Below are positions 36,099 to 64,000 of a stretch of 64,000 bases of DNA, in pieces. Location: positions 512,001 through 576,000 of the forward strand of contig CAVZJB010000004.1 of assembly GCA_963775425.1 (NCBI GenBank), in the 5' to 3' direction. Each line of letters begins with the position of its first letter. The stretch's first letter is position 1. Made by a program: the position numbers and the translations under genes. This DNA is from an uncultured delta proteobacterium (GTDB lineage: Bacteria; Myxococcota; UBA727; VGSZ01). The notes beneath the pieces were generated by a model. That model did not search any database and was not told the DNA's origin. It worked only from the letters and a program-made list of their open reading frames with translations.

Positions 36099-36115
36099 CG
36101 CGGCAAACTGCCGCA
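36099..36115. promoter_or_regulatory. Candidate RegA/PrrA/RegR box upstream of actA
   Basis: GCGGC-AAACT-GCCGCA, close to the GCGGC-N5-GTCGC consensus, about 105 bp upstream of actA. Confidence 0.45.
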
Positions 36116-36124
36116 ACTGCGGCG

Positions 36125-49537: not shown

Positions 49538-49538
49538 C

Positions 49539-49769: not shown

Positions 49770-49808
49770 GGGTTGCCTCGGGTACGTTGGCTGTGGGGGA
49801 TCAACATC

Positions 49809-50514: not shown

Positions 50515-50516
50515 GC

Positions 50517-51132
50517 CGCGCCCACGTGGCGCGCGCGACGCCCTTGTGGCGCGCGCGACGCCCTTGTGGCGCGCGCGACGCCCCTTGTGGCGCGCGCGAC
50601 GCCCCGGTGCCTCTTGTGGCGCGCACGAGGCCCGGTGTGGCGTACGCGACGCCCTTGTCGCGCGCGCGACGCTCCGGTTCGCGCGCGACGCCCCGTGCCG
50701 CGCGCGCGACGCCCTTGTGGCGCGCGCCACGCCCCGGTGCCTCTTGTGGCGCGCACGACGCCCCGTGTGGCCCGTGCCGCGCGCGCGACGCCCTTGTGGC
50801 GCGCGCCACGCCCCGGTGCCTCTTGTGGCGCGCGCACGACGCCCCGTGTGGCGCCCCCGATGCCCCGTGTCGCGCGCGACGCCCCGTGCCGCGCGCGCGA
50901 CGCCCGTGTGGCGCGCCACGCCCCGGTGCCTCTTGTGGCGCGCGCGACGCCCCGTGTGGCGCGCGCCACGCCCCTTGTCGCGCGCGACGCCCCGTGGCGC
51001 GCGCGCGACGCCCGTGTGGCGCGCGCGACGCCCCTTGTGGCGCGCGCCACGCCCCGTGCCGCGCGCGCGACGCCCCGTGTGGCGCGCGCGACGCCCGTGT
51101 GGCGCCCCCGATGCCCCGTGTCGCGCGCGGGA
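50517..51132. repeat. Degenerate ~20-bp tandem array (GTGGCGCGCGCGACGCCCCTT-like), roughly 30 units
   Basis: Continuous variants of the unit with occasional GGTGCCTCTT inserts and no unique spacers. Intergenic between convergent genes. Confidence 0.92.
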
Positions 51133-51163
51133 CGTAGGGCGGGGGCTCGTCCCCCGCCTCGTC

Positions 51164-52096
51164 TCAGAAAAACCCGAAGCGCAGCGCCGCCGACGCCGAC
51201 GCCGACGCAGGCCGATTCATGCCGGCGTGCGAGAGCGGGACGCCGGAGCTCAGTCCGACGAGGAGCGTCCAATGCGGATCGACCTTCCACGACGCCAGGG
51301 CGCCGGCGGACACCACGAGCGCGTTCGAGCCTTCGGCGACCTTGCCGTCGAGCGTGTACGGCGCGTCCCACACGATGCCCGCGCTGCCGCCGACGACGAC
51401 GCCACCGGCGACCTCGGCGCCCGCGGAGACGCCGGCGGCGGCGGTGGGGCCGAGCGCCTCGACGCCGCCCTTGACGTGAAACGGCATGTACGCGGTGGCC
51501 CCGAGGTCCGCGTGCGCGAAGAACGCGCCGAGCGTCTTGTCCGCGGACAGCGCGGCGCCGGCGCCGAACGCGCCGCGGCTGGTGGCGTCGGTGGCGAGCG
51601 GCGCCCTGGCCTCCTCGGGGCGCCGGCCGGTGGCGAACAGCGCCGAGCCGATGACGGCGACTGTGGGCCACGCGCCCGCCGCGCGCTCGTCGGCGATCTG
51701 CCAGCGCAGGCTGCCCTGGGCGTCGCCGAGCGCGGCGCCGGCGCCGCCCGCGTCGCCCACGCCGCGCGCGGTGGCCACCGCCGGCAACGACGCCGACAGC
51801 TCCAAAGACGGCGCGAGGCGCAGGAGCGCGTACGGCTCGAGGCGTAGCTCGTCCTCGTGGTAGCCGCCGCTGTTCGGGTGGAAGGCGCCGGCGGCATCCC
51901 AGGTGCCGAGCGTGTCGGCGAGCGAGAGCCGCGCGCCGAGCGCCGCTTGCTCCCACATGGCCAGGCGCCCCACGCCGAACATCGCCGACGTCATGCAGCA
52001 GCCCGCCGCTCGCGCCGGGGATGACGCGAGCGCGAGAGCGACGACGACGCCGGCGACCGACGCGGCCGCGGATATGCACGTGGGTCTAGGGCACAT
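51164..52096 (-). CDS. Putative outer-membrane beta-barrel channel with an N-terminal CC motif
   Basis: Signal peptide ending ARA-AGCC, amphipathic strands, G..LGD....LRW motif of transporter/COG4313-like barrels, and a terminal Phe (LRFGFF). Confidence 0.65.
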   Translation of the reverse strand: MCPRPTCISAAASVAGVVVALALASSPARAAGCCMTSAMFGVGRLAMWEQAALGARLSLADTLGTWDAAGAFHPNSGGYHEDELRLEPYALLRLAPSLELSASLPAVATARGVGDAGGAGAALGDAQGSLRWQIADERAAGAWPTVAVIGSALFATGRRPEEARAPLATDATSRGAFGAGAALSADKTLGAFFAHADLGATAYMPFHVKGGVEALGPTAAAGVSAGAEVAGGVVVGGSAGIVWDAPYTLDGKVAEGSNALVVSAGALASWKVDPHWTLLVGLSSGVPLSHAGMNRPASASASAALRFGFF

Positions 52097-52538
52097 CGAA
52101 CGAGGGCGCCGCGCTGCCGCTGGCCGGACCGCTCAACGACGTGCGCAGCTCCCACTCGCCGGGCATGATGAGGTCGACGTTGTCGACGAGGTAGCGGCCG
52201 TCGCCCTGGTCCGTTGCCGATGGGACCACCGATGTGCCGTGGCCCATGCGCGGCATGTACGGGGTGATCTGGATGTCGAGACCCGGCACGCCCTGCCCGT
52301 CGACGTCGACGACGCGGAGCTCGAACGGCACGACGCCGACGATGGGCGGCTGCGGGTCGCTGCGCAGCTCCAGGTGGAGCGCGCCGTCGTCGGTGTCGAC
52401 GGCGACGAGCGCGTCGTCGGGGAACACCGGCGGGCCGTCGTCGACGGGCGCGGCGGGCGCCGCACCGCAAGCCGACAGGCCCAGCGCAGCGACGACGCCG
52501 GCGAGGGCGGGCAGGCAAACCGGGACGAGACGGGGCAT
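52086..52538 (-). CDS. YtkA/FixH-like lipoprotein (copy 2)
   Basis: Lipobox LSAC; PYMPRMGHGT...GDG.Y....V.L.MPGEWEL. Confidence 0.8.
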   Translation of the reverse strand: MPRLVPVCLPALAGVVAALGLSACGAAPAAPVDDGPPVFPDDALVAVDTDDGALHLELRSDPQPPIVGVVPFELRVVDVDGQGVPGLDIQITPYMPRMGHGTSVVPSATDQGDGRYLVDNVDLIMPGEWELRTSLSGPASGSAAPSFDVP

Positions 52539-52607
52539 CGCTGCGAGCTTATCGCGCAGAGCGGCGCGCGTCTCGGCCGGAGGGACGATGTGTGGCCCGC
52601 CGCACGC

Positions 52608-53183
52608 TCAGGGCACGTCGATGAAGAACGCCGCGTGACCGTGCTGCGAGGTCTCGCTGTCGACGCAGTTTTCGTAGAAGTGGAAGCGGACGGTCCAGCG
52701 CCCCGGCGCGTCGAAGCGCACCGGCGTGATGGTGTAGACGCCGGCATCGCCCTCGGTGGTGGCGGTGCCGGCGTTCGGCGCGGGGTGGTTGTCGTCGAGG
52801 AACACCTCGGCGCGCGCGTTGGCCCCGGCGGCGGGGGCGTCGTTGTCGGCGAGCTTGGTGGCGGTGACGGTGAAGGTGACGTCGGCGCCCTCGGTGACGT
52901 CGGAGACGGAGTACTTCACGTGGTACTTGCAGTCGTCGTCGTCACCCTCGGTGTTGAACATCGTCGCGCCGTAGTCGTCGTCGCCCGCGTCGCCTTCGCC
53001 CTCGCCCTCGCCGACGCCGTCGCAGACGGCCGGGTCGGTGAGCACCGGCGTCACGCCCTGGCAGTGGGTGTCGGCGGCGCCGTCGACGGGGCCGCCGACG
53101 TCGGCGGGAGGGGGGCACCCGGTGAGCGCGGCGACGGCCGCGAGGAGCGGGACGGAGGCGAGGGAGAGATGGGAGATGCGCAT
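52608..53183 (-). CDS. His/Cys-rich YtkA/FixH-like Ig-fold lipoprotein (copy 2)
   Basis: Lipobox LTGC, DTHC, DDDCKYHV, HPAPN and GRWTVRFHFYENC.D....HGH.AF. Confidence 0.75.
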   Translation of the reverse strand: MRISHLSLASVPLLAAVAALTGCPPPADVGGPVDGAADTHCQGVTPVLTDPAVCDGVGEGEGEGDAGDDDYGATMFNTEGDDDDCKYHVKYSVSDVTEGADVTFTVTATKLADNDAPAAGANARAEVFLDDNHPAPNAGTATTEGDAGVYTITPVRFDAPGRWTVRFHFYENCVDSETSQHGHAAFFIDVP

Positions 53184-53218
53184 GGGGAAGGCGTACCCGG
53201 ACGCTCTCTCGAGGTCGA

Positions 53219-53235
53219 TGCGACACAGCGCCGCA
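53219..53235. promoter_or_regulatory. RegA/RegR-type box
   Basis: TGCGACACAGCGCCGCA equals GCGGC-N5-GTCGC on the - strand, 36 bp upstream of the ATG at 53183. Confidence 0.62.
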
Positions 53236-53287
53236 CGCGCCGTGTCCGCGCCGCGCTCGCCCTCGCCGCGGCTCTCAGAGGCTGATC

Positions 53288-53422
53288 CGCGTCATCGAGA
53301 CCGCCGCGAGTGGCCACGAGGGCTGGCCCGATGGACCGTTGATCCGAGCCACCCGGAAGGGGACGGTGCTACGGCCACACGGCGGAGCGGAAAGGAGCTG
53401 CGAGCTCGGCGACGATGACGCG
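53288..53422 (+). ncRNA. SAM-I riboswitch-like structured RNA (divergent, orphan)
   Basis: P1 CGCGTCATCG/CGATGACGCG, GAGGGCTGGCCCGATG at 53318-53333, and AGCCACC...GGTGCT resembling P3. Confidence 0.45.
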
Positions 53423-53479
53423 CGCCGAGTTGAGCGCCGGGGCGCCGAGCTCTCCGCTCCTTTCCGCTCCGGCGGCCGT

Positions 53480-53853
53480 GTGCTCGGTGGGCTCGACCTC
53501 GACGGGTTCACAGCGAGCGCCAAGGCCGTGCAGTTTGGCGGTGGGCGCCCGATTACGAGCCCGCGGATGCTCGTCACGGTGGCGACGGAAGGCAAGGGAT
53601 CGGGAGCGCCCGGGAGATCCCGCCACCTCGGCCGCGCGGGGCCGGCGATCGCGGCAAGCACCAAAAGCAGTACAGGGCGTGGATGAAGAGCGCCGCAGCG
53701 AAGGCGCGATACCGCACGCGCCCTGGTCTCGCCGAGCACGCCAACGCCGTCGACACGCTCTACGTACGGGGGCTAGCGAAGGTGACGACGGTCGCCCTGA
53801 TGGCAGCCGTGGCCTTCAACCTGCTGCAGAACCTCGCGAAGCTCACCGCCTGA
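53480..53853 (+). pseudogene. Decayed IS1182-family transposase (N- and C-terminal remnants, middle deleted)
   Basis: VLGGLDLDGF..SAKAV..GGGRP.TSPRML, then a frameshifted GIGSAREI, then MKS..AKARYR.R.GLAE..NA..LYVRGLAKVTTVALMAAVAFNLL. IR-like TCCTCACAACCT near 53959. Confidence 0.75.
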
Positions 53854-54077
53854 AGTCCGCGCCGACGTCGCATCGAGGCACGTCGGCGCGCACACGACCC
53901 GCACGAACCCGCCACGTGCGCTGATAGCGGGATCACAACACCGCTCGGACCCGCCGTTTCCTCACAACCTGCAGCGGTTCTTGCGCGCCGACGTGCCTCG
54001 CCACGTACTCCGCGCGGCGAGCCACCTTGTGGGCGGCTTCGCCGAGTGCTGCTACGCCTTATTTTTTCGTCAGCCTT

Positions 54078-54626
54078 TCACGACTTCGGCGGCAGTTTTT
54101 GCAGCTTTCTCTGCAGCGAGCGCCGATGGATGCGCAGGCGCCGCGCCGCCTCCGAGACGTTGCCCTCGCAATCGGCGAGCACACGGTGGATGTGCTCCCA
54201 CTCGGCACGCGCGAGGGAGACGTCGGGGATCGCGACCCCGCCGGACGGCTCGACGACGTCCTCGAGCCCGAGCGCCGACAGGAGCGCCGCGACGGTGACG
54301 GGCTTTTGCAGGTAGTGGACGGCGCCGGCCTGGATGGCGTCGACGGCGGTGGGCACGCTGCCGTATCCCGTGAGCACCACGATGCGGGTGTGCGGGTCGA
54401 TGGCGAGCAGGCCGCGCAACACGTCGAGGCCGGTGATGCCCGGCATGCGCAGGTCCACGACCGCGAGCTCCGGCGGGTCCGCGCGCGCGGCGAGGAGCGC
54501 CGCCTCGCCGTCGCCCTCGGTGCGCACCGACAGGCCGCGCTCGCGCAGCGCCGCGGCGAGGCGCGTGCGAAAGGGCTCGTCGTCGTCGACGAGGAGCACG
54601 CTCGGGGCGTCGGCGTCGGCGCTCAC
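54078..54626 (-). CDS. regA: RegA/PrrA/ActR family response regulator
   Basis: LTGYGSVPTAV.A...GA..YL.KP and SLARAEWEHIHRVL..C.GNVSEAARRL.IHRRSLQRKL. Confidence 0.93.
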   Translation of the reverse strand: MSADADAPSVLLVDDDEPFRTRLAAALRERGLSVRTEGDGEAALLAARADPPELAVVDLRMPGITGLDVLRGLLAIDPHTRIVVLTGYGSVPTAVDAIQAGAVHYLQKPVTVAALLSALGLEDVVEPSGGVAIPDVSLARAEWEHIHRVLADCEGNVSEAARRLRIHRRSLQRKLQKLPPKS

Positions 54627-55813
54627 CGAAACCTCCAGACGGCGCGCGTCTCGACGCCGGGCGTGGAGGTGAGCTCGAGGGCACCACCGAGCTGCTCGGC
54701 GAGCGAGCGCGCGACGAATACGCCCAGGCCCATGCCTTCGCCCGGGGCACGCGTGGTGAAAAACGGCTCGCCGACGTGCGCGAGCGCGTGCGCCGGGATG
54801 CCGGCGCCGTGGTCGACGACGGCGACGGCGAGGCCGGGACCGGCGACGACGCTCACCTCGCCCGGGCCCGCGACGAGCGCGTTGCGCACGAGGCCGCGCA
54901 GCGCGCCGGCGACCGCGCGCCCGGGCACGGTCACCTCACGATTCTCGACGATCTCCACGATCACGCGCTCGCGCCCTCGCACGCCCTCGAGCGCCATGTC
55001 GACGAGCGCGCGCAGCGACAGCGGGCCGATGGCGTCGCTGGCAGCGTGGCCCCCGTCGAGCGCGAGCTGCTCGAGGATGGCTCGGCAGCGCGACACCTGC
55101 TCGAGCACGAGGCGCGCGTCGCCGCTGCGCGCGTCGCCCGGGTCGAGCTTGCGCAAGAGCTCCTCGGCCGCGACCCCGATGGTCGCCAGCGGCGTCGACA
55201 GCTCGTGCGCCGCGCCGCCCGCGAGCGTGGCCAGCGACGCCAGCCGGGTGTGGCGGGCCTCCAGATCGCGCGCGCGCCGCACGGCTCGCTGGACCCGGTT
55301 CACGAACAGGCACACGAGGCCGGCGGCGACGATGAACGCCACCCACATCCCCTTGAGGTGCAGCGCCATGTGCTCGTGGTGGTGGCGCGACACGTCCGTG
55401 AACAAGAAGAGGAGCCCGTACGCCACGGTGGCGATAACGGCCACCGCCCACGCGCCCGCGCCCCCGAGCACCACCGCGGCGAGGCTCACGTGCACCAGGT
55501 AGAGGAACGTGAACGGGTTGAACGGCCCGCCGGTGAGCGCGAGCAGGAGCGTCAGCGTGGCGATGTCGGCGACGAGGATGATGACCAGCGCCCCGCGGGG
55601 CACGCGGGTGACCCGGCGTCGCGCGACCTCGAGGGCCGCGTTCGCCAGCGCGTTGGCGACGACGACGGCGACGGCGCGCCCGACGGCGACCTCGTCGGGC
55701 GCGAGCCAGAGCACCGCGGCGAGCACCGCCGCTTGGGCGAACACCGCGCCCCAGCGGAGCCGCACGAGCTCGCGCAAATGGATGACACCCTCGTCCTCAC
55801 GGCCCGTCGCCAC
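54623..55813 (-). CDS. regB: RegB/PrrB/ActS family sensor kinase (start uncertain)
   Basis: LVRLRW, six TM segments, GGPFNPF quinone motif, AAHELSTPLATI, RCRAIL Cys and G.GLG.F. Confidence 0.9.
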   Translation of the reverse strand: MATGREDEGVIHLRELVRLRWGAVFAQAAVLAAVLWLAPDEVAVGRAVAVVVANALANAALEVARRRVTRVPRGALVIILVADIATLTLLLALTGGPFNPFTFLYLVHVSLAAVVLGGAGAWAVAVIATVAYGLLFLFTDVSRHHHEHMALHLKGMWVAFIVAAGLVCLFVNRVQRAVRRARDLEARHTRLASLATLAGGAAHELSTPLATIGVAAEELLRKLDPGDARSGDARLVLEQVSRCRAILEQLALDGGHAASDAIGPLSLRALVDMALEGVRGRERVIVEIVENREVTVPGRAVAGALRGLVRNALVAGPGEVSVVAGPGLAVAVVDHGAGIPAHALAHVGEPFFTTRAPGEGMGLGVFVARSLAEQLGGALELTSTPGVETRAVWRFR

Positions 55814-55846
55814 GGGCTCCCATAGCAAGGCTGCGCCGTCCGCGCC

Positions 55847-55863
55847 TGCGACACGGTGCCGCA
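55847..55863. promoter_or_regulatory. RegA/RegR-type box upstream of regB
   Basis: TGCGACACGGTGCCGCA, 15/17 identical to the box at 53219-53235. Confidence 0.65.
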
Positions 55864-55922
55864 CGTGAGCGGCGGGCGCCGCTGCGGGAGCGAGACGCGG
55901 CGGCGCGGCGGCCGCCCTCATC

Positions 55923-56645
55923 TCAAGGGTTGAGGAACGTGATCAGGTCGGCGACGTCGTCGTCGCTCAACTGTTCCTTCGTGAACGGCGGCATGCTCCC
56001 GCCGATGCCGAAGAACGCGCCGTGGCGGATCTTCTCGATGACAACGAGGTCGGCAGGAAAGCCGATCTCCTTGGCGAAGCTCTCGCTGGCTTCGGGCACG
56101 AGCACCGCCAGCTCCGTGAGCCGCCCCTCGCCTGTGTGGGGCGCGCCGTGGCAGACCGCGCACGCGTGATCCCAGATGTCGGCGCCGTGGCTCGCGTCGC
56201 CCTTGGGCAGCGAGACGACGTTTTCGACGATGGTGAGCGGCAGCGTGTCCTCGCCCGCATCTCCACCGGGCGCGTCGGCGGCGCTCGAGAGGTACTCGTA
56301 GATCGCGCGGGCGCGCGGGTCGTCCCGGGTGAACGCCGTTCCCCGCATGAAGAACGTGAAGCACGCGTTGGTGGCGTCGAGGAGGTTCGTCGAGTACCCG
56401 CCCCAGAAGCGCGTGCGCCGCGCCGCGTTCTTCAAATCGTAGCCCGCGAAGACGCGGTCACCGGGGTCGCCCATGGCATGGCACGTGGCGCAGGAGAACT
56501 TGTTGACCTCGCTGTCGGCGAGCCGCGCGTCGTTGAAGAGCTGCTCGCCGACGTCCTTGGCCGGGACGGGGCCGCAGCCCGCACCGAGCCCCATGAGCAG
56601 CGCGGCGCCCGCGAGCGTGACGACGAGCGGCGTGCGGGGCGTCAT
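55923..56645 (-). CDS. Di-heme c-type cytochrome lipoprotein
   Basis: Lipobox-like GAGC, CATCH and CAVCH, and a GSMPPF axial Met. Confidence 0.88.
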   Translation of the reverse strand: MTPRTPLVVTLAGAALLMGLGAGCGPVPAKDVGEQLFNDARLADSEVNKFSCATCHAMGDPGDRVFAGYDLKNAARRTRFWGGYSTNLLDATNACFTFFMRGTAFTRDDPRARAIYEYLSSAADAPGGDAGEDTLPLTIVENVVSLPKGDASHGADIWDHACAVCHGAPHTGEGRLTELAVLVPEASESFAKEIGFPADLVVIEKIRHGAFFGIGGSMPPFTKEQLSDDDVADLITFLNP

Positions 56646-57907
56646 TGGGGCACCCGCATGGCCGCGATGTCATCGGGGAAGATGCCGAGCGTGACCTTCC
56701 CCAACAGCGCGTGAGGCGGCGCGGCGTCGAACACCAAGAAGCTGCCCGGGTTCGTGTGGTCGCCTTCGCAGACGGTGAAGATCTTCGTGCCGTCCTCGTT
56801 GAACCGCGCCACGTGGGGGAGCACGCAGTCCGACGGGCTCACGAAGATGGTGGACTCGAACGTCAACGTGCCGCCGCTGACGTCAAAGAGGGTGACGCCA
56901 TCGGTGTTCTGATGCGCGATCAGCATGGTGTCGCCGCGCACGTCGCCGAACGACGCTACGCCGGGGAGCTGGAACTTCTGCCCGTTGAGCGAGCGCGAGG
57001 GGATGTCGACGCCGATGACCTCGCCGCTGCTGAAACACGACACCCACGCCGTCTCGCCGTCGACGGTGATGCCGTACGGCTGGCAGATGGGGTTGTCGAG
57101 CGTGCCCGGGTTGTCGATCACCTGCAGGACGTCGACGTGGTGGTCGTCGCCGACGAGGTCGATGATGGCGACGTGGTCGTTGTAGCAGGAGGTCACCGCC
57201 GTCGAGGAGTCGGGGGTGAAGCCGATGCCGTGCGCGGCCGGACACGTCTCCACGAACGTGGGCTTGTCCATGGTCTCCGGGTCGATGATGGCGAGCCGCG
57301 AATCGACGTCGGGGCCCTCCGTGATGCCGTTGCCGATCGCCGTGGTGACCTTGGCGAGATCGAAGTGCGACGCCACCAGCGTCTTTCCGTCCGGCGTGAG
57401 CCGGATGTCGCCCGGGTTCGGGTCCACGCGCGACGCGGCGACGAACGAGTTGTCCGAGACGCGCATCTTGACCATGTGCCCCGGGATGGTGCCGGCGCCG
57501 TGGACGCCGTGCGGCCCCGAGCCCGAGCCGGGCACGAAGTTGGAGACCCCGTAGTAGTAGAACTGGCCGTCGGCGCCGGCGACGCAGTGGTGCGGCCCCT
57601 CGCGCTCCACCGGCACGAAGCCCGCCGGCACCTTGCCGAGCAACACCGGCGCGCCCGCGTCGGCGCTGTCGAGGTCGATGACGCTGATGGTGTCCTCGAG
57701 GTTGTCGGTGACGTAGATGCGGCCCTCGCCCGGCCCGGGCGACGGCATGAGCGGCGCCGTGGGCCACACCTTGTCCGCGGGGATGTCGAACGTCATCACC
57801 GGCAGGTGGTCGGGGTCGAACGTGCACCCGGCAGCGGCGCCGCCGGCCGCGACGACGGCGACGACGAGCTCCACCAGGCGTGCGCGCGCGCGCTCTCTCG
57901 TCGTCAC
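56642..57907 (-). CDS. YncE-like beta-propeller lipoprotein, His/Cys-rich
   Basis: IYVTDN.EDTISVID blade motif, EREGPHH, HGVHG, CPAAHG, CVLPH and CEGDH. GTGA overlap. Confidence 0.8.
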   Translation of the reverse strand: MTTRERARARLVELVVAVVAAGGAAAGCTFDPDHLPVMTFDIPADKVWPTAPLMPSPGPGEGRIYVTDNLEDTISVIDLDSADAGAPVLLGKVPAGFVPVEREGPHHCVAGADGQFYYYGVSNFVPGSGSGPHGVHGAGTIPGHMVKMRVSDNSFVAASRVDPNPGDIRLTPDGKTLVASHFDLAKVTTAIGNGITEGPDVDSRLAIIDPETMDKPTFVETCPAAHGIGFTPDSSTAVTSCYNDHVAIIDLVGDDHHVDVLQVIDNPGTLDNPICQPYGITVDGETAWVSCFSSGEVIGVDIPSRSLNGQKFQLPGVASFGDVRGDTMLIAHQNTDGVTLFDVSGGTLTFESTIFVSPSDCVLPHVARFNEDGTKIFTVCEGDHTNPGSFLVFDAAPPHALLGKVTLGIFPDDIAAMRVPQ

Positions 57908-59346
57908 TCGGGCTCCCCGCACGCGATCCAGGCGAGCAGCGTGGTGCGCTCGTCCGGCGCGAGCTTCCCGTCCGCGGGCATGGTGCACGCGGCGACGTCG
58001 GCGAGCATGTTGTCGTGCTGGTCGATCGCGCCCTGGCGCGTGTCGAGCGGCTCGGCGGCCGCGGCGCCGTCGGCGGTGTGGCAGTACACGCAGCTCTTCT
58101 CGAGGATGGGCGCGACGTCCGCGGCGTAGCTCGGCGGCGTCGCGGGGCACGAAGGCGCGCCGTCGTCGGGGCAGTCGAAGGCCGGCCCGAAGTCCGGGTT
58201 GGCGACGAAGCTCTCGTCGGTGAGGCTCGAGAGGAAGGCGAGCAAGCCGTTCTTCTCGTCGTCGTCGAGCGTGAACCCCTTCACCAGAGGGTCCTTGAGC
58301 GGGTTCTGGCTGCCGTCGCCGGCGTTGTCCTCGCCGTCCGCGATGGCGCGGCCGGCGTGCGCGTATTGATCGACGAGCACGCTGTCGAGCGTGGCCATGG
58401 AGCCGTCGTGCATGTACGGCGCCGTGAGGTCGATGTTGCGCAGGCTGGTCGCGCGGAACTTGCCCATGTCGCCGTCGTCGTCGGTGAAGTCGATGAGGCC
58501 GCGATCGCCTGCGGGGTACGCGCCGGCGCCGTCGACGTTGTACAGGCCGGTGTTGTGATAGACAGCGGCCACCGGGAACGCGTCCGTGGTGGACGTGGAG
58601 GTGTCGGCGAGGTTGAAGTCGCCGTGGCAGTGGTAGCACTCGCACTTCTCGGAGAAGAAGAGCGTGAGCCCCCTCTTGGCGTCGTCGCTGAGCGCGGCGT
58701 CGTCGTGATCGTTGAAGTAGCGATCGTAGGGCGTGTCGCCCGACAGGAGCGTGCGCTCGAACGACGCGATGGCCTTCTTGACGTTGGTGGTGGTGAACGG
58801 GTCTCGCTCGTCGGGGAAGGCCGCGGTGAAGAGCTGCGCGTAGGTGTCGTCGTCGCGCAGGGCGGAGACGATGTCCGCGTCGATGCCCGAGAGCCCGAGC
58901 TCGACGGGGTGCTCGGAGAACATCGGGATGTCCATCTGCTTCTCGAGCGTGCCCTGCGCGGGGTTGGACCACGTGTTGGCGACGTTGTACGCCACGTTGG
59001 TGAGGCTCATGGCGTTGTGCTCGGTGAGGTCGCCGGTGGCGCCGCGCGCGCGGACGCGGCCGTCGGTGAAGCCCTTCACCTGGATGTGGCAGGTGCCGCA
59101 CGACGTGGTGCCGTTCACCGACAAGCGCTTCTCGTAAAAGAGGTGGTGCCCGAGCTCGACCTTCTCGTCGGTCATGGGGTTGTCGTCGGGCACGCGCGGG
59201 GTCGGCAGCGCGGGCGGCGGCGGGTGCCGCTCGAAGAAGTCCTTGGGCTTGCGCGGCGTCGGCGGCGGACACCCCGCGAGCGAGAGCGCCGCGGCGAGCG
59301 TCGCGAGAGGCGCCCCCAGCGCCACGGCGACCGCCCTCGCCTTCAT
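57904..59346 (-). CDS. mbnH: MbnH-family di-heme enzyme with an extra C-terminal mono-heme domain
   Basis: DNPMT.EKVELG..LFY..RLS.NG..SCGTCH, NVAYN, PVELG, CYHCH, HNTGLY, GKFR..SLRNI.LTAPYMHDGS, plus CVYCH. Directly follows mbnP. Confidence 0.88.
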   Translation of the reverse strand: MKARAVAVALGAPLATLAAALSLAGCPPPTPRKPKDFFERHPPPPALPTPRVPDDNPMTDEKVELGHHLFYEKRLSVNGTTSCGTCHIQVKGFTDGRVRARGATGDLTEHNAMSLTNVAYNVANTWSNPAQGTLEKQMDIPMFSEHPVELGLSGIDADIVSALRDDDTYAQLFTAAFPDERDPFTTTNVKKAIASFERTLLSGDTPYDRYFNDHDDAALSDDAKRGLTLFFSEKCECYHCHGDFNLADTSTSTTDAFPVAAVYHNTGLYNVDGAGAYPAGDRGLIDFTDDDGDMGKFRATSLRNIDLTAPYMHDGSMATLDSVLVDQYAHAGRAIADGEDNAGDGSQNPLKDPLVKGFTLDDDEKNGLLAFLSSLTDESFVANPDFGPAFDCPDDGAPSCPATPPSYAADVAPILEKSCVYCHTADGAAAAEPLDTRQGAIDQHDNMLADVAACTMPADGKLAPDERTTLLAWIACGEPE

Positions 59347-60194
59347 GGGGCCGCCCCCACGCCGAACACGGACTGCGCCGGCGCCTCCTCGCCCGCGGCG
59401 AAGGGGAGCCCGACGCTGTGAAAGAGGCTCTCGCAGTCGGGGTCCGTCGGCTCGGACATGCAGCCCGGCGCGGTGTCGGCGGTGTTGTTGTCGATGTCCG
59501 CGCCCGACAGGAGCGCGCCCACGTCGATGGTGACGGCCTTGTCGGGGCTCCAGTCGGACAGGGAGATGGTCGGGCGGTTCGGGTGGTCGCATCCCTGGAC
59601 GACGCCGCCGGCGCCGACGTCGCAACCGGCGCTGCCGACGTGGCAGTACCAGCCCTCGGGCTGCCCGTCCGAGTAGATGTCGAGCTTGAAGAAGCGATAG
59701 CCCGCGGCCCACCCCCAGTAGAGCGACGAGAGGTTGAGCGGCGACGGCGCCTTGCTCGCGTCGGCGTGGTCGACGTCGTCGGGGACGCCCACGTCGAAGG
59801 TGACGCCGTCGTACGTGCCCTCGGGCGCGTGGACATTGACGACGGTGCGCGTGTCGGCGGTGCCCGGGCTGCACTTGCCCGTGCCGTCCTCGAAGTCCAG
59901 CAGCGCGACGCCCTTGGCCTGCCAGGGCGCCTCGTCGTCGACGGTGGCGTCGACGTCGCCGTCTGCGCCGTGCAGGCGCACGTGCGAGATGTACACGCGC
60001 AGGTCGCCGATCTGCATGGACGAGCCGCTGCTGCCGATGCCGGTGTAGCTCTGCCCGCACGCGAGCGGCGCGCCGGCCACGGTGGCGGCGAAGGTGAGCG
60101 AGACGGCCTGACCGGGATCGTCGGGAGGCGGACAACCACCGAGCCCGGCGGCCATGACGGCGACGACGGCGACGGTGAGGATGCGCATCTTCAT
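59343..60194 (-). CDS. mbnP: MbnP-family copper-binding lipoprotein (four-Cys type)
   Basis: F.A.V.G....CG..Y, DLR.YIS.V.L, WQ..GVALLDFE.G.G.C, YWGW..GY.F (WxW), H.GS.GC and C..PNR. Confidence 0.9.
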   Translation of the reverse strand: MKMRILTVAVVAVMAAGLGGCPPPDDPGQAVSLTFAATVAGAPLACGQSYTGIGSSGSSMQIGDLRVYISHVRLHGADGDVDATVDDEAPWQAKGVALLDFEDGTGKCSPGTADTRTVVNVHAPEGTYDGVTFDVGVPDDVDHADASKAPSPLNLSSLYWGWAAGYRFFKLDIYSDGQPEGWYCHVGSAGCDVGAGGVVQGCDHPNRPTISLSDWSPDKAVTIDVGALLSGADIDNNTADTAPGCMSEPTDPDCESLFHSVGLPFAAGEEAPAQSVFGVGAAP

Positions 60195-60214
60195 GTCGTA
60201 CCACTCCAGAAGGG

Positions 60215-60625
60215 TCAATTGTCGGGCGATCCGCACACGAGCCACGTGAGGAGCATCGATCGGGCGTCGGGGGGCAACACGACACCCGCGTCGGGCGGCG
60301 GCATCGTGCACGCGTAGACCTGATTGAGCACCGCGCTGCGGCGACGAAAGACGTCGTCGTAGTCGACGAGGGGCTTGTTCGCCACCGCCGCGCCGGGCGC
60401 GTGGCATTGATCGCAGGTGCTCGCGAAGATGGGCTCGACGTCGGCCTGGAAGCTCGGCGCGGGCGAGGGGCACTCGCTCGGCAAGTCGTTCGGGCAAGGG
60501 CCGTCGTCGACGCCTGCGTCGGGAGGGTCGACGCCGCCCGGGCACGCGGCGGCGCCGAGCGACAGGAGCGCGACCGCGACGAGCTGCGGCGCGCCCCAAC
60601 GGGTCGATCCTCTAGGGCACGTCAA
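60215..60625 (-). CDS. Small mono-heme cytochrome c lipoprotein (start uncertain)
   Basis: Lipobox-like AAAC, PSF..DV.PI....CDQCH, CTMPP and L.W..CG.P. Confidence 0.8.
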   Translation of the reverse strand: MTCPRGSTRWGAPQLVAVALLSLGAAACPGGVDPPDAGVDDGPCPNDLPSECPSPAPSFQADVEPIFASTCDQCHAPGAAVANKPLVDYDDVFRRRSAVLNQVYACTMPPPDAGVVLPPDARSMLLTWLVCGSPDN

Positions 60626-61055
60626 AGCTCGGGTCCGCGGTGTCATCGTCATCGAAGGTGGTCTGCAGCTCCCAGAGGCCGCTCATGATGAGGTCGACGT
60701 TGTCGACGGTGTAGACGCCGTCGCCGTCCTCGCTCACGCTGGGGTGCACGGAGGCCCCGTGGTTCATCTGCGGCATCCAGGGCTTCACCGTGAAGGAGAG
60801 CCCCGTGAGCGGCGCCCCGTCGGCGTCGGTGACCACGAACTGAAACGGTGTCACGCCCACGGCGGGCGGCTGCGGCGACGAGCGCACCTCGATGTGCTTG
60901 GCCGCGTTGGTGCTGTCGACGGAGAGGAGCGCCTGGTCGGGGAACACCACCGGCGCGGGCTCGGGCTCGCCCTCTGCCGCCTGCCCGAAGCAACCGGCGA
61001 CGCCGAACAGGGCGAGGGTGGCGACGACGACAGGCAGGGAGCGGGAGAGCGGCAT
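60612..61055 (-). CDS. YtkA/FixH-like lipoprotein (copy 1)
   Basis: Lipobox VAGC; PWMPQMNHGA...GDGVY....V.L.M.G.WEL. Confidence 0.8.
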   Translation of the reverse strand: MPLSRSLPVVVATLALFGVAGCFGQAAEGEPEPAPVVFPDQALLSVDSTNAAKHIEVRSSPQPPAVGVTPFQFVVTDADGAPLTGLSFTVKPWMPQMNHGASVHPSVSEDGDGVYTVDNVDLIMSGLWELQTTFDDDDTADPSFDVP

Positions 61056-61062
61056 GAAGACC

Positions 61063-61647
61063 TCAGGGCACGTCGATGAAGAACGCGACGTGTCCGTGCT
61101 GTGACGTGTCGCTGTCGACGCAGTTTTCGTAGAGGTGGAAGCGGACGGTCCACCGGCCCGCCTTGTCGAAGCGGATGGGGCCGACGGTGTACACGCCGGG
61201 GCCGCTCTCGAGGGTGGTGGTCCCCGAATTCGGCGCGGGGTGGGTCTCGTCGAGGAAGACCTCGGCGCGCGTGTTGGCGCCGGCGGCGGGGGCGTCGTTC
61301 TCCGCCAGCTTGGTGGCGGTGACGGTGAAGGTGACGTCGCGGTCTTCGGTGACGGGCGTGACGTCGAACTTCACGTGGTACTTGCAGTCGTCGTCGTCGG
61401 CCTCGGTGTTGAACAGCGTGGGGCCGTAATCGTCGGCGGCGTCGCCTTCGCCTTCGCCTTCACCTTCACCTTCACCTTCACCGGCGCCGTCGCACACGGC
61501 GGGGTCGGTGAGGACGGGCGTCACGCCCTGGCAGTGGGTGTCCGCGTCACCGGTGACGGGACCGCCGACGGCCTCTGCAGGCGGCGGACAGGCCGCGCAC
61601 AGCGCCACGGCCATCGAGGGAAGCAGGGTCCGGACGACGATGCGCAT
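61063..61647 (-). CDS. His/Cys-rich YtkA/FixH-like Ig-fold lipoprotein (copy 1) with a GE linker
   Basis: ATG at 61647. Near-identical to 52608..53183, e.g. DTHCQGVTPVLTDPAVCDG and YENCVDS.TSQHGH.AFFIDVP. Confidence 0.78.
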   Translation of the reverse strand: MRIVVRTLLPSMAVALCAACPPPAEAVGGPVTGDADTHCQGVTPVLTDPAVCDGAGEGEGEGEGEGEGDAADDYGPTLFNTEADDDDCKYHVKFDVTPVTEDRDVTFTVTATKLAENDAPAAGANTRAEVFLDETHPAPNSGTTTLESGPGVYTVGPIRFDKAGRWTVRFHLYENCVDSDTSQHGHVAFFIDVP

Positions 61648-61819
61648 GCTCGGGCTTGTATACGGGGCAGCCCGGCGCGTCGATGCGGGTTGATCAGCGA
61701 CCGGAGGGAGCGGCCGCGCTTGATCCGGACGCACGAGCGGCACGCTCGTCGCGACGCGCTGGTGAGCGCAAAGGAGACCGGGGGCATGATCACAAACGAA
61801 ACTGTCAGGCCCGTCTTTG

Positions 61820-61879
61820 GACATGACGTCACTCGGCATCACGTCCAAAGACGTGACGTCACTCGACATGAAAGGTCAC
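61820..61879. repeat. Short 15-bp degenerate tandem repeat overlapping a stop codon
   Basis: GACATGACGTCACTC / GGCATCACGTCCAAA / GACGTGACGTCACTC / GACATGAAAGGTCAC. The stop of the upstream gene is at 61859-61861. Confidence 0.6.
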
Positions 61880-62470
61880 CGGGTTGCCTTTGTAGGGGCC
61901 CTCGCTGACCCGGTTGTTCACCAGATACGCCCCGACGATGCTCGCGGTGATGTCCTCGCCCTTGTGGTCCTTGAGCTCCTTCCACGCCGCGTCGTCGAGC
62001 GTGACCTGAAGGTTGGACGTGTGCACGCCGAGCGGGCAGGTGCGCCCCGACAGCGGCATCTCGATGAGGTACATGTCGCCGGTCTTGGGCGGCAGGTGCG
62101 CGAGCGCCGGCGGGTCGAGCGCACCGAACAGCGCGTCCGCGGCGCCGCCGATGAAGCCGCGCGCGGGCACACGCACGGCCTTGCGCGCGGGCTTGCGCGC
62201 CGGCTCCAGGGACGCCACGCGCAGCGGCGAGGTCCAGGTGAACGTCGGCGCCGCGCGGACCGCCGCGCCGTCCGCCGGGGCCGTGAACACCGGCGAGCTC
62301 GCCTCGTCGAAGGTGGCGTGCGGCTCCACGTCCTTCATCGTGAGCCAGGTGTCGTCGGTGACGTTGCCGTCGAAGGCCGGCTCCTGGTCCGGCTCGAGAC
62401 AGGGGTCCCCCGTCGGACCGCACGCGGCGGCGAGGGAGGCAAGACACAAGGCGACGACGACCACGCGCAT
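61859..62470 (-). CDS. Hypothetical lipoprotein, first gene of the MbnPH cluster
   Basis: ATG at 62470, lipobox LAAAC, P.FTW and an internal ALAHLPP.TG..Y motif. Confidence 0.75.
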   Translation of the reverse strand: MRVVVVALCLASLAAACGPTGDPCLEPDQEPAFDGNVTDDTWLTMKDVEPHATFDEASSPVFTAPADGAAVRAAPTFTWTSPLRVASLEPARKPARKAVRVPARGFIGGAADALFGALDPPALAHLPPKTGDMYLIEMPLSGRTCPLGVHTSNLQVTLDDAAWKELKDHKGEDITASIVGAYLVNNRVSEGPYKGNPVTFHVE

Positions 62471-62689
62471 CCGGACAACCTCGGCGTCGACGGCGCAACA
62501 GCGCCGGCGCCGTCCATGTCGTACCTCGCCGAGCGCGATCGGGACAGTGGGCATGCGTCCGATCCTCGCCGGATCCTCGTCGAGGAGCACGCCGTCTCGT
62601 GCGCCAGAGCACACCCGAGCACGGAGGAATTCTGCCTCGCTGCGCCGACAAGCCCCGGCGGCCGGCGGCCCGCGTCCTTACGTTGGCCC

Positions 62690-64000
62690 ATGGGGCAGCC
62701 GAGCACCGAGCACCTCGACGTCGACGACATGCTCCACGCATGGGCCGTCCTGTCGGGGCCCGAGCGGCGCGAAGGGTTCACGCTGCTGGACCACACCGCG
62801 GCAGAGGAGCTGTTCCTGTCGCTGCCCGCGCGTGACCAAGCGGACCTGCTGCACTCTCTGCTGCCGAACGAGCGGCGGCTGTGGCTGCGCTTGTTGCCGC
62901 CGGACGACGCCGCCGACGTCATCCAGGCGTCGCCCGAGGAGGAACGCGGCGAGCTGTTGGCGCTGCTCGACGACCAGGCGCGCCGCGACGTCACGGCGCT
63001 GCTCGCCTACGAGGAGGACGTCGCCGGCGGCGTGATGAGCACGCGCTTCGCGCGGCTGCGTCCGGACATGAGCGTCGACGAGGCCATCCAATATCTGCGT
63101 CGTCAGGCGCGCGCGCGCGTGGAGACGCTCTACTACGCCTACGTGCTCGACGCGGGCCAACACATGCTCGGCGTCGTCTCCTTCCGCGACCTGTTCGCCG
63201 CGCCGCCGGGCGCCCTCGTGCGGGACATCATGATCACCGAGGTGGTCACCGTGCCCGAGACCATGGACCAGGAGGCCGTGGCGCACCTGTTCGCGGACAA
63301 CGACCTCATCGCCGTCCCCGTCGTCGACGCGGCGAGCCGCATGAAGGGCATCATCACCGTCGACGACATCGTCGACGTGGTCGCCGAGGAGGCCACCGAG
63401 GACATCCAGAAGGTCGGCGGCACCGAGGCGCTCTCGGGCCCCTACCTCGGCGTGCGCATGACCGAGATGGTGAAGAAGCGCGCGGGCTGGCTCACCATCC
63501 TGTTCGTCGGCGAGATGCTCACCGCGTCGGCGATGGGGTACTTCCAGCACGAGATCGAGCGCGCGGTGGTGCTCGCGCTGTTCATCCCGCTCATCATCTC
63601 GTCGGGCGGCAACTCGGGCTCGCAGGCGTCCACGCTCATCATCCGCTCGCTCGCCCTCGGGGAGCTCGGCCTGCGCGACTGGCCGCGCGTCCTGCGCCGC
63701 GAGCTGCTCTCGGGCCTCACGCTCGGGGTGGTGCTCGGCGCCATCGGCTTCGTGCGGGTGGTGATGTGGGCGCTGATCTTTCGTATGTACGGGCCGCACT
63801 TCCTGCTCGTCGCGGCCACCGTCGGCGTGAGCCTCGTCGGCGTCGTCACCTGGGGCACGGTCACGGGCTCCATGCTCCCGTTCGCGTTGCGCCGCGCGGG
63901 CTTCGATCCCGCGAGCGCCTCGGCGCCGTTCGTGGCCACGCTCATCGACGTCACCGGGCTCGTCATCTACTTCTCGGCGGCGTCGGTCCTCTTCCTGCGC
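62690..64000 (+). CDS. mgtE: Magnesium transporter MgtE (3' end runs off the window)
   Basis: Hand translation from ATG at 62690: PDDAADVI, LAYEEDVAGGVM, CBS pair, GIITVDDIVD, KKRAGWL, GGNSGSQAS and DPA.ASAPFVATLIDVTG. Confidence 0.95.
   Translation, partial: MGQPSTEHLDVDDMLHAWAVLSGPERREGFTLLDHTAAEELFLSLPARDQADLLHSLLPNERRLWLRLLPPDDAADVIQASPEEERGELLALLDDQARRDVTALLAYEEDVAGGVMSTRFARLRPDMSVDEAIQYLRRQARARVETLYYAYVLDAGQHMLGVVSFRDLFAAPPGALVRDIMITEVVTVPETMDQEAVAHLFADNDLIAVPVVDAASRMKGIITVDDIVDVVAEEATEDIQKVGGTEALSGPYLGVRMTEMVKKRAGWLTILFVGEMLTASAMGYFQHEIERAVVLALFIPLIISSGGNSGSQASTLIIRSLALGELGLRDWPRVLRRELLSGLTLGVVLGAIGFVRVVMWALIFRMYGPHFLLVAATVGVSLVGVVTWGTVTGSMLPFALRRAGFDPASASAPFVATLIDVTGLVIYFSAASVLFLR

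Follow-up and report, generated by a model that had tools for sequence, protein, structure and literature searches.

A probable modular copper-handling and redox-converting system, tethered to the outer membrane, in an uncultured deltaproteobacterium

Thirteen genes, all on the minus strand between positions 51164 and 62470 of the window (the 64,000-nucleotide stretch of contig CAVZJB010000004.1 analysed here) and called from GC3 and codon usage, probably encode a modular system, tethered to the outer membrane, that handles copper and performs redox conversion. The cluster holds two copies of module A, its conserved core: G2-G3-G4 and G11-G12-G13. Module B unites MbnP and a tri-heme MbnH, a putative kynurenine-dependent copper-binding pair, and includes the G1 lipoprotein; module C joins a His-rich YVTN propeller to a di-heme cytochrome, and is specific to this lineage in the data set. 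The parts are known at the level of gene models, families, conserved residues, predicted folds and gene order across genomes. The reading that joins them (three separable modules, a copper route through H, heme, Y and the barrel, and control by RegBA) is one that we hold, as a whole, with moderate confidence. Comparative evidence comes from a genome scan anchored on the H lipoprotein (G2, G11), in which 80 related loci were examined, all from Myxococcota or unresolved deltaproteobacterial MAGs; 45 of them have at least 5 kb on either side of H and form the full-flank subset.

The genes are closely packed. Overlaps of 4 nt join G5/G6, G6/G7, G7/G8 and G9/G10, G12 and G13 overlap by 11 nt, and the spacers measure 1 bp (G8-G9), 7 bp (G2-G3) and 20 bp (G4-G5), which bears out an earlier note on this DNA that described 13 co-oriented genes, many of them coupled. 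A spacer of 211 bp separates G1 from G2 and a gap of 894 bp separates G10 from G11, and the set must therefore comprise at least two to three transcription units, not one. The gap has no homologue among the ORFs of the 80 related loci and matched no Rfam family; a 56-aa plus-strand ORF within it (53683-53853) weakly matches the C-terminus of DDE_Tnp_1_6 (E 0.018). The ten lipobox-like signals that the note had counted were also recovered: nine proteins match a lipobox regular expression, and G2 is the tenth, its Cys20 falling in the invariant lipobox column of the H alignment. In M. xanthus the inner-membrane retention signal is Lys at +2 (PMC3222651); because none of the ten carries it, these lipoproteins are likely tethered to the outer membrane. 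Pfam at E≤0.01 gave nothing for G1, G4, G7 or G13. As the note had held, the 56 window ORFs scanned with Pfam include no TonB-dependent receptor or Plug domain and no family named for methanobactin biosynthesis, MbnA being too small for such a scan. The cluster contains no copper-responsive regulator, P-type ATPase or multicopper oxidase, which counts against the copper reading. Genes for Sco, CtaB and alternative complex III lie in the same window, 15-25 kb off.

Table 1. Features of the cluster, with positions in the window.
Feature	Description	Position	Strand	Evidence
G1 (L)	203-aa lipoprotein, Myxococcota-only family	61859..62470	-	gene after MbnH in relatives
G2 (H, copy 1)	194-aa lipoprotein, divergent YtkA-like Ig fold	61063..61647	-	YtkA 27.3 bits
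G3 (Y, copy 1)	147-aa YtkA lipoprotein, MPQMNH ... IMSGLW	60612..61055	-	YtkA 49.5 bits
G4 (c)	PSCyt1-like monoheme c-type cytochrome lipoprotein	60215..60652	-	CDQCH, then C-x-MP, then W-x2-C
G5	MbnP-family copper-binding lipoprotein, WGW motif	59343..60194	-	TIGR04052 245 bits (cutoff 140); PF20243 138 bits
G6	MbnH-family MauG-like di-heme lipoprotein with third, C-terminal c-type heme domain	57904..59346	-	TIGR04039 458.7 bits (cutoff 362.85); CCP_MauG 143 bits
G7	421-aa YVTN/YncE-type beta-propeller lipoprotein	56642..57907	-	104 relatives
G8	240-aa di-heme c-type cytochrome lipoprotein	55923..56645	-	Cytochrome_CBB3 53.6 bits; Cytochrom_C 42.3 bits; N-terminal CCP_MauG-like heme motif
G9	RegB/PrrB/ActS-like redox-sensing histidine kinase	54623..55921	-	NF033792 216 bits (curated cutoff 350)
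G10	RegA/PrrA/ActR-like response regulator, receiver and Fis-type HTH	54078..54626	-	NF033791 162.7 bits (cutoff 250); Response_reg 88.9 bits; HTH_8 44.1 bits
Gap	894 bp, weakly coding, possible transposase remnant	53184..54077	.	frame plot
G11 (H, copy 2)	191-aa G2 paralogue	52608..53183	-	YtkA 25.4 bits
G12 (Y, copy 2)	150-aa YtkA lipoprotein, MPRMGH ... IMPGEW	52086..52538	-	YtkA 36.0 bits
G13 (OM)	310-aa 12-strand OM barrel (predicted)	51164..52096	-	model pLDDT 83.8

In module A, the two copies of H are 73% identical and share every invariant column; G2 passes the Pfam YtkA cutoff (PF13115, 25.9 bits) and G11 just misses it. Across 32 sequences H has invariant THC, DDDxCKYH, THPAPN and SPHGH motifs, six invariant His (H38, H91, H136, H171, H184, H186) and four invariant Cys outside the lipobox (C39, C52, C88, C176). 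Its predicted model (pLDDT 87.2) has PDB fold matches at E≤1e-3 to H. pylori CrdA alone (9ll2/9ll4, apo and Ag-bound; E about 2e-4, TM 0.74 on the target), at an identity of just 17-18%, and its sequence profile matched no solved structure. FetP/P19 and CopC follow at E 2e-3 to 2e-2, interleaved with and no better than generic filamin/Ig domains, and for this reason the fold alone is no proof of copper. H has an ordered N-terminal extension, and CrdA, CopC, P19 and FetP are not known to have either this extension or the four Cys and six His. H may bind copper.

In Y, an alignment of 53 family members gives a conservation of 1.00 for M95, H100 and M125 and of 0.98 for W129, while a 20-sequence set shows no variation at any of the four; this Met/His/Met/Trp site could hold copper. 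G3 and G12 are 49% identical. According to the part of PMC9145763 consulted, the YtkA protein CtaK is a Met/His lipoprotein required for CuA assembly under low copper, Sco and CoxB are reduced by TlpA, and Sco, SenC and PrrC are one protein. Y resembles CtaK, as there described, in being a lipoprotein above the YtkA cutoff with conserved Met and His. As for the CtaK/Sco/TlpA proteins of Bacillus and Bradyrhizobium, a TlpA-like redoxin stands beside module A in relatives and the window also encodes Sco; unlike them, Y is partnered by the far more His/Cys-rich H, a cytochrome and an OM barrel, and does not adjoin oxidase structural genes. PCuAC is a functional analogue of CtaK-type CuA chaperones. 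The three motifs of the monoheme cytochrome c (G4) are invariant in 33 family members, and a related cytochrome in locus L075 matches PSCyt1 (2.2e-9).

The barrel protein G13 begins with a signal peptide followed at once by AGCCM, its Cys-Cys-Met lying in an N-terminal segment ahead of the barrel. This Cys-Cys tip is found in 13/13 OM family members with a called N-terminus and is a candidate copper site. The model superposes (TM 0.69-0.78) on the plugged 12-strand channels FapF (5o65_A, 6.6e-15, TMq 0.70) and COG4313 (Phenol_MetA_deg; 4rl8_C, 1.4e-12) and likewise has an N-terminal segment ahead of the barrel. It differs from them in having no Pfam match, in a mature N-terminus that opens with conserved Cys-Cys, and in a partner gene that is metal-chaperone-like, not one of the amyloid or hydrocarbon genes. 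PcoB/CopB is a functional analogue, PcoB not being among the fold matches listed for G13. In relatives, 21 of 24 barrels have Y just before them and 15 are followed by a redoxin; the redoxin is absent at the window cluster, which counts against our reading. The barrel travels with Y, not with MbnPH. The earlier suggestion that a small barrel replaces the TonB receptor survives in a weaker form: a second small-barrel type (Phenol_MetA_deg-like) occurs in all three MbnPH-bearing loci, with a CxxCxC tip in the two of its five members that have a called N-terminus.

Could module A serve iron or another thiophilic metal, or form an extracytoplasmic electron chain to an external acceptor? Copper-containing P19/FetP proteins handle iron with thioredoxins and offer a template for it, fold matches of the H model extend to FetP and P19/FtrA (E 5e-3 to 2e-2), and the H loci include a five-heme c554-like cytochrome (32/80), a redoxin (21/80) and TonB-dependent receptors (in 8 plus 4 loci). 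MerT shows that vicinal cysteines can bind Hg(II) too, and those of the barrel tip could suit it. Such roles are nevertheless very improbable: neither an Ftr1/EfeU-type permease nor mer genes appear among the recurrent families, a 12-strand barrel, as G13's fold matches also indicate, lacks the size to enclose a cytochrome in the way of MtrB-type porin-cytochrome complexes, and the site in Y together with the adjacent MbnP points to Cu(I).

For the named families MbnP, MbnH and YtkA, models passed their curated cutoffs. G5 aligns with MbnP (PDB 7L6G, E 4.5e-33), WxW on WxW, and G6 has three CxxCH, with the extra cytochrome c region at residues 410-474. In the portions of the literature consulted, the copper site of MbnP is kynurenine-dependent (PMC11951088) and MbnPH is linked with obtaining copper from methanobactin (PMC13729199). 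G5 and G6 are like the MbnP/MbnH "metallo-mystery pair" of Methylosinus trichosporium OB3b in passing both curated models, in the retained WxW and in adjacency; they are unlike it in that both are lipoproteins, G6 has a third heme domain, and neither methanobactin genes nor a TonB receptor was found in the window. A further difference is the G1-type lipoprotein, which follows MbnH in 3/3 related loci (order MbnP-MbnH-L in L031, L034 and L055), whereas in the window the propeller does. G1 has no Pfam or NCBIfam match; its closest neighbours in the Atlas (score 0.96) are clusters of unnamed lipoproteins from Myxococcota. In module C, the propeller G7 has seven invariant His (H106, H107, H133, H136, H181, H226, H365) and four invariant non-lipobox Cys (C222, C241, C361, C380), and its profile matches 1l0q (1.7e-15) and hydrazine synthase beta (5c2v_B, 1.8e-11).

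G9 and G10 have RegB/RegA (PrrB/PrrA, ActS/ActR) as their best matches and the RegB motifs are intact, but both proteins score under the NCBIfam equivalog cutoffs. G9 is a six-TM kinase with GGPFNPF, R-x6-Q in TM1 and, 40 residues past the H-box His, a Cys; GGxxNPF and the redox Cys are kept in the RegB of H-adjacent relatives as well. These features, the quinone motif and redox Cys of RegB among them, are described in PMC3000548. As in regB-senC-regA, G9 and G10 sit beside putative copper chaperones, though the neighbour here is YtkA-type, not Sco-type. A Sco-type SenC/PrrC gene is linked to regB and regA in Rhodobacter. The present host is a myxobacterium, with menaquinone, not ubiquinone, as its quinone. 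A RegA/PrrA-type palindrome was not enriched, with 28 found and 33.7 expected. RegBA may control the cluster genes.

Around H, the genes that recur encode the PSCyt1-like monoheme c, the Met/His protein Y, the OM barrel, a redoxin, the five-heme cytochrome and often RegB/RegA. Of the 45 full-flank loci, 36 have Y or c no more than 5 kb from H, 19 the OM barrel, 19 a multiheme cytochrome and 12 a redoxin; in 7, H has no partner gene inside 5 kb, which counts against our reading. MbnP/MbnH occur in just 3/80 H loci, and the propeller (G7 type) and di-heme cytochrome (G8 type) in 0/80. The 13-gene set is not conserved as a unit, and the idea of one conserved assembly centred on MbnPH finds no support; by co-occurrence in other genomes, which the earlier note had itself chosen as the test, the full set fails, and H, c, Y, OM, redoxin and RegBA recur. 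It could even be that there is no single system, that chance rearrangement co-oriented independent units (H-Y-OM, H-Y-c, MbnPH, propeller with di-heme cytochrome, RegBA) and that RegBA governs distant respiratory genes. Besides those counts, the highly variable make-up of H loci, the presence of RegB within 5 kb in just 11 of the 45 loci, the 211 bp between G1 and G2 and the gap with its weak transposase-like remnant favour this view. We find it doubtful, and the distant role for RegBA equally so: the 4-nt overlaps and 1-bp spacer from G5 to G10 argue for co-transcription of MbnPH, propeller, di-heme cytochrome and RegBA; MbnH carries a fused heme domain homologous to the stand-alone c of module A (40% identity to G4 over 92 aa, E 4e-18); H and c directly adjoin L-MbnH-MbnP in the three other MbnPH loci; and RegBA lies within 1 kb of H in 11/80 loci, in several arrangements. 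The functional link of MbnPH, G7 and G8 to module A rests on adjacency and overlap in one genome, and against it stand their absence from the conserved neighbours of H and the gap, with its possible IS remnant, that splits the cluster.

The copper and redox theme put forward earlier remains coherent, with the MbnP/MbnH models passed, the site in Y, the match of H to CrdA and the intact RegB motifs. In the modular reading, copper at the periplasmic face of the outer membrane would pass to H, whose His-rich site would suit Cu(II); c-type heme proteins would reduce the H-bound copper; and Y would accept Cu(I) at its Met/His/Met/Trp site, exchange it in one direction or the other with the barrel's Cys-Cys tip, and send it on to cuproenzymes. 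What we infer is the step of electron transfer, which way transport runs and which enzymes are the clients. The same chemistry could run the other way as detoxification, with Y and H sequestering copper or silver, the cytochromes setting the redox state and the barrel exporting, a route that might be modelled on proposals for CrdA/CrdB and PcoB/CopB. H does match a copper resistance determinant, Met2His+Trp sites like that of Y typify chaperones that serve efflux, CusF for one, small barrels of the PcoB/CopB kind are part of resistance operons, and the cluster lacks an inner-membrane importer. Yet an RND pump, P-type ATPase, multicopper oxidase or copper-sensing regulator is neither adjacent, nor in the window, nor recurrent in the 80 loci, and the linked regulator senses redox or quinone, not metal. 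In the parts of the sources consulted, moreover, the characterised YtkA protein CtaK serves oxidase assembly at low copper and MbnPH is tied to acquisition (PMC13729199). We judge detoxification unlikely, as we do its proposed route. Transport may be uptake rather than efflux and delivery may be to respiratory oxidases, as the earlier note proposed; on the modular reading RegB, sensing the quinone pool, would with RegA fit expression to respiratory demand. The conserved heart of the cluster is not MbnP/MbnH; it is an uncharacterised lipoprotein pair resembling copper chaperones, with a small cytochrome, a Cys-tipped outer-membrane barrel and a redox sensor.

The genes of the cluster (G1 to G13) were called from GC3 frame plots and by codon log-odds scores, for which window genes with Pfam support served as the training set; raw ORF lists are unreliable in this window because its G+C content is about 72%. 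The calls bear out the 13 co-oriented genes that an earlier note, a model's reading of the sequence, had described at 51164-62470. Junctions from G5 through G10 are 4-nt overlaps or a 1-bp spacer and G12 overlaps G13 by 11 nt, while 211 bp lie between G1 and G2 and a weakly coding gap of 894 bp separates G10 from G11. A 56-aa ORF in this gap weakly matches (E 0.018) the C-terminus of a transposase of the DDE type (DDE_Tnp_1_6) and may be an IS remnant dividing RegA from the second H-Y-OM unit (H, Y and OM being two lipoproteins and an outer-membrane barrel). Promoter and terminator scans found no promoter-like site and 6 terminator-like sites (3.6 expected), so operon boundaries could not be drawn, and an Rfam scan of 49000-64000 gave no match. 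Ten products carry the lipobox-like signals claimed for them: nine were found by regular expression and G2 by a Cys in the invariant lipobox column. None of the ten has Lys at position +2, the inner-membrane retention signal in M. xanthus according to PMC3222651, and this suggests that all ten hang from the outer membrane.

Genes and other features of the window, with the thirteen cluster genes first
Feature	Position	Strand	Description
G1 (L)	61859-62470	-	lipoprotein; nearest clusters are unnamed Myxococcota lipoproteins
G2 (H copy)	61063-61647	-	marginal YtkA
G3 (Y copy)	60612-61055	-	clear YtkA domain
G4 (c)	60215-60652	-	monoheme cytochrome type
G5	59343-60194	-	MbnP
G6	57904-59346	-	MbnH with third heme domain
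G7	56642-57907	-	YVTN/YncE-type propeller
G8	55923-56645	-	di-heme cytochrome c
G9	54623-55921	-	RegB-like kinase
G10	54078-54626	-	RegA-like regulator
G11 (H copy)	52608-53183	-	marginal YtkA
G12 (Y copy)	52086-52538	-	clear YtkA domain
G13 (OM)	51164-52096	-	12-strand barrel model
ORF in G10-G11 gap	53683-53853	+	weak transposase match
Repeat array	50526-51134		directly downstream of barrel gene G13
SlyX-family gene	49539-49769	-	downstream of repeat array
MgtE-type Mg2+ transporter gene	62690-64000	+	divergent from G1
Respiratory block	26719-37692	-	alternative complex III: ActD, NrfD-like gene, 4Fe-4S subunit, multiheme and di-heme cytochromes
SCO1/SenC	36125-36763		before alternative complex III genes
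Heme O synthase	36757-37692		before alternative complex III genes
Hybrid histidine kinase	11362-17157	+	1931 aa; nine HAMP repeats, GAF domain, three receiver domains
Region after 1931-aa kinase	17208-20224	+	CheR-like methyltransferase fragment and second hybrid kinase
Ser/Thr protein kinase genes	3440-10017, 45740-47806	-	four genes, one with PEGA domain
IS110-family transposase fragment	3-479	-	at window edge

The array beyond the barrel gene spans about 600 bp and consists of about 28 degenerate direct repeats of 20-21 bp in one orientation (consensus GTGGCGCGCGCGACGCCCCGT); at up to 3 mismatches, the consensus has 27 copies in the array, and the rest of the window holds 1, where 1.6 would be expected. 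The repeats have no spacers between them and the array is therefore not CRISPR-like. Elsewhere in the window, the transposase fragment and the Ser/Thr kinases are typical myxobacterial content.

The earlier note had placed the possible novelty in the 13-gene assembly, and this did not survive a check of gene neighbourhoods. The superfamilies of the parts are known, as is the MbnPH pair; the real novelty is the H-c-Y-OM module. The anchor of the genome scan was the "HGH/Cys" lipoprotein H (G2 and G11), of all the parts the one least understood, and the scan gave 292 pattern matches and 220 relatives, of which the best 80 loci were examined. All 80 lie in Myxococcota lineages or unresolved delta/proteobacterial MAGs, several of which supply two or three loci; the window likewise has two H genes. 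Partners were counted by tblastn with the 13 window proteins (at least 50% query coverage). HMM searches of six-frame ORFs agree with the tblastn picture, and partners were also counted within 5 kb of H in the 45 of these loci where H is flanked on both sides by 5 kb or more.

Partner genes at H loci (best 80 of 220 relatives, and the 45 of these with full flanks)
Partner	Best 80 H loci	Full-flank H loci
c (G4 type)	53/80	31/45
Y (G3 type)	45/80	30/45
Y or c		36/45
OM barrel	24/80	19/45
Five-heme c554-like cytochrome		19/45
Redoxin		12/45
RegA	21/80	11/45
RegB	17/80	11/45
MbnP	3/80	2/45
MbnH	3/80	2/45
G1	3/80
Propeller G7	0/80	0/45
Di-heme G8	0/80	0/45
No partner gene		7/45

Gene order was taken from our own calls. 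H was called in 77 of the best 80 loci, and in 47 of these either c or Y comes next; Y stands before the barrel in 21 of 24 cases, and a redoxin after the barrel in 15 of 24. MbnH comes directly after MbnP in 3/3 cases, and a G1-type lipoprotein after MbnH in 3/4 (best 80 H loci of 220 relatives). Co-occurrence and order thus single out H-(c)-Y, Y-OM-redoxin and MbnP-MbnH-L as the conserved units, which often have RegBA as a neighbour, and the window holds two copies of the first kind together with MbnPH and a lineage-specific propeller/cytochrome pair. A rival explanation, that independent modules were joined here by rearrangement, draws on the same counts, given that the conserved neighbours at the best 80 H loci do not include MbnPH, G7 or G8, and on the weak transposase remnant in the 894-bp gap.

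Of 7427 candidates scored against H, 1049 are relatives at E<=1e-3; their identity is typically about 50%, and almost none has a name. In a set of 1.84 billion proteins, the H family has 400 representatives when clustered at 50% identity. Six His and four non-lipobox Cys are invariant in an alignment of 32 sequences, and fall in the motifs THC, DDDxCKYH, THPAPN and SPHGH. The YtkA-like character attributed to both lipoprotein pairs stands clearly for the two Y copies and marginally for the two H copies: against PF13115 (gathering cutoff 25.9 bits), G3 scores 49.5, G12 36.0 and G2 27.3 bits, with G11 slightly below at 25.4. H and Y are distant homologues (22% identity, E 2e-4), and THPAPN of H aligns on MPxMxH of Y, which puts the key residues of both in the same loop. 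In Y, M95, H100 and M125 are present in 53/53 sequences, 98% of which also have W129; across 20 sequences none of the four residues varies. Such a Met2His-plus-Trp set is that of CusF and other chaperones of Cu(I)/Ag(I). The invariant His100 is a candidate equivalent of the functional His118 of CtaK. Two subtypes of Y can be told apart: subtype 1 comes after the cytochrome c gene and carries the motif C-x-x-D-x-R-V near its N-terminus, and subtype 2 precedes the barrel and starts with F-P-x-x-A-L (contrast L002, L004, L011, L018-L020, L027, L039 and L050 with L033, L075 and L076). Both window copies are of subtype 2.

A PDB sequence search with Y and with the H profile returned nothing meaningful. 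The structural model of H (pLDDT 87.2) finds only H. pylori CrdA, apo and Ag-bound, among PDB entries at E<=1e-3; the next matches are FetP/P19 and CopC (E 5e-3 to 2e-2), interspersed with filamin Ig domains. As evidence for copper, this modelled fold is suggestive, not decisive. It also bears on two competing readings of the module. The function of CrdA in resistance and the absence of an importer would both fit copper detoxification instead of uptake, and the P19/FetP-like fold, along with the multiheme cytochromes, suggests that the substrate could be something other than copper. Complex prediction for mature H and mature Y scored 0.00 in both runs, which counts neither for nor against binding.

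The remaining members of the H-c-Y-OM module are the cytochrome and the barrel. G4 shares the pattern CxxCH ... MP ... W..C, and its family has CxxCH, a C-x-M-P segment and four more invariant Cys; PSCyt1 (PF07635) does not match G4 and matches a related small cytochrome in L075 at 2.2e-9. The G13 model (pLDDT 83.8, with a low 46-53 in the plug region) is a 12-strand barrel with an N-terminal plug segment, as in the COG4313/Phenol_MetA_deg channels, and Foldseek aligns it to 4rl8_C (COG4313; E 1.4e-12, TMq 0.69, TMt 0.78) and FapF (6.6e-15). Neither G13 nor its relative L012:10910-11815 matched PF13557 or any other Pfam family at E<=0.01. The mature protein of the family starts with A-C-C or G-C-C in 13/13 members with a called N-terminus. 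No TonB-dependent receptor was found among the 56 window ORFs scanned, in keeping with what had been noticed before.

The MbnP/MbnH assignment was confirmed by HMM. G5 scores 245 bits against MbnP TIGR04052 (cutoff 140) and 138 against PF20243 (cutoff 27), and aligns to the solved MbnP 7L6G (E 4.5e-33) with its WGW on WNW. According to PMC11951088, the second Trp of the MbnP WxW motif becomes kynurenine; G5 is predicted to bind copper and to have its kynurenine formed by MbnH. G6 scores 458.7 bits against MbnH TIGR04039 (cutoff 362.85) and 143 against CCP_MauG, has the two CxxCH motifs, and overlaps the adjacent mbnP gene by 4 nt. A third heme domain sets it apart from the MbnH family; this extra domain is 40% identical to G4, and the fusion links a G4-type cytochrome to MbnH. 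A second small-barrel family (weak Pfam match to Phenol_MetA_deg; seen in L031, L034, L036, L055 and L060) accompanies the MbnPH-bearing loci, and has an N-terminal CxxCxC in both members with a called N-terminus.

That G7 is a beta-propeller of the YncE kind also held up: the profile of its family alignment matches the solved YVTN propeller 1l0q (1.7e-15), 5c2v_B (hydrazine synthase beta, 1.8e-11) and YncE (3.5e-5), and its nearest Atlas clusters are YncE/Lactonase, with no Pfam match at E<=0.01. About 100 relatives were found, Hyalangium proteins among them. Exactly seven His, including the HH pair in EREGPHH, and four Cys are invariant in the alignment, which suggests a multi-His metal centre. 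A CuZ-like reading of these His was dropped, as NosZ is not what the profile matches; its matches are YVTN propellers and hydrazine synthase beta. Propeller genes of other types (BNR/sortilin and LVIVD) lie just upstream of H in L002, L004, L007, L011, L018, L020 and L039. The BNR/sortilin type stands before H in 7/13 cases (gene order, best 80 H loci of 220 relatives), and in the 626-aa protein P0226 such a propeller is fused to an H domain, so H appears to work with propellers in general, of another family than G7.

The RegB/RegA reading stands as to best matches, motifs and domains, and falls short of the NCBIfam equivalog cutoffs. G9 scores 216 bits against NF033792 (cutoff 350) and 151 against NF045988 (cutoff 570), and RegB is still its best match by a wide margin (next is ZraS, 74 bits). 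The RegB hallmarks described in PMC3000548 and PMC8191878 are a GGXXNPF quinone motif, an R and a Q within TM1, and a redox-active Cys that lies between H-box and kinase domain; G9 has GGPFNPF, RWGAVFAQ (R-x6-Q, TM1) and, 40 residues beyond the phospho-accepting His, a Cys. G10 scores 162.7 bits against NF033791 (cutoff 250) and has the receiver and Fis-type HTH architecture (Response_reg 88.9, HTH_8 44.1 bits). The palindrome GCGNC-N5-GNCGC, which we take to be of the RegA/PrrA type, has 28 matches against 33.7 expected and is uninformative in 72% GC DNA. In Rhodobacter, senC/prrC presumably lies between regB and regA, and RegBA beside YtkA-type proteins in myxobacteria would parallel this placement of RegBA beside a Sco chaperone.

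According to PMC9145763 and PMC13344008, CuA assembly at low copper requires CtaK (YtkA), a Met/His lipoprotein and functional analogue of PCuAC; TlpA maintains Sco and CoxB in the reduced state; and Sco, SenC and PrrC are one protein. The respiratory block, 15-25 kb from the cluster, is a potential client or partner of a copper relay. The most economical model for such a relay has four steps, and we infer its transfers, binding, direction and regulation throughout: H would bind Cu(II), c-type hemes would reduce the H-bound copper, Y would carry Cu(I), and the Cys-Cys tip of the barrel would exchange copper across or at the outer membrane. A redoxin (absent in this cluster) would keep the thiols reduced, RegBA would make expression follow the quinone-pool redox state, and MbnPH with G1 would add a second copper site. 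A more far-reaching proposal, which we regard as rather unlikely, is that H-c-Y-OM, with or without the redoxin, would be an undescribed, Myxococcota-wide and TonB-independent copper route over the outer membrane. The small plugged barrel would be gated by its vicinal-cysteine tip, lipoproteins tethered to the outer membrane would bind Cu(II) (H), reduce it by c-type hemes and carry Cu(I) (Y), the RegBA quinone-pool sensor would tune the route to respiratory demand, and MbnPH and the seven-His propeller would have been recruited here as further copper sites.

To our knowledge, the passage of copper over the outer membrane to periplasmic chaperones and oxidases is poorly understood beyond a few model proteobacteria. 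No literature was found joining YtkA-like or MbnP with Myxococc-; the primary MbnPH studies (PNAS 2021, JBC 2019) may list myxobacterial contexts. Myxobacterial MbnPH has a third lipoprotein and small barrels of its own, not methanobactin genes. The cluster points to a compact, recurrent Myxococcota gene set in which two YtkA-type proteins are joined by heme proteins, a redoxin and a Cys-tipped barrel, and which holds all the ingredients needed for the capture, reduction and hand-over of copper.
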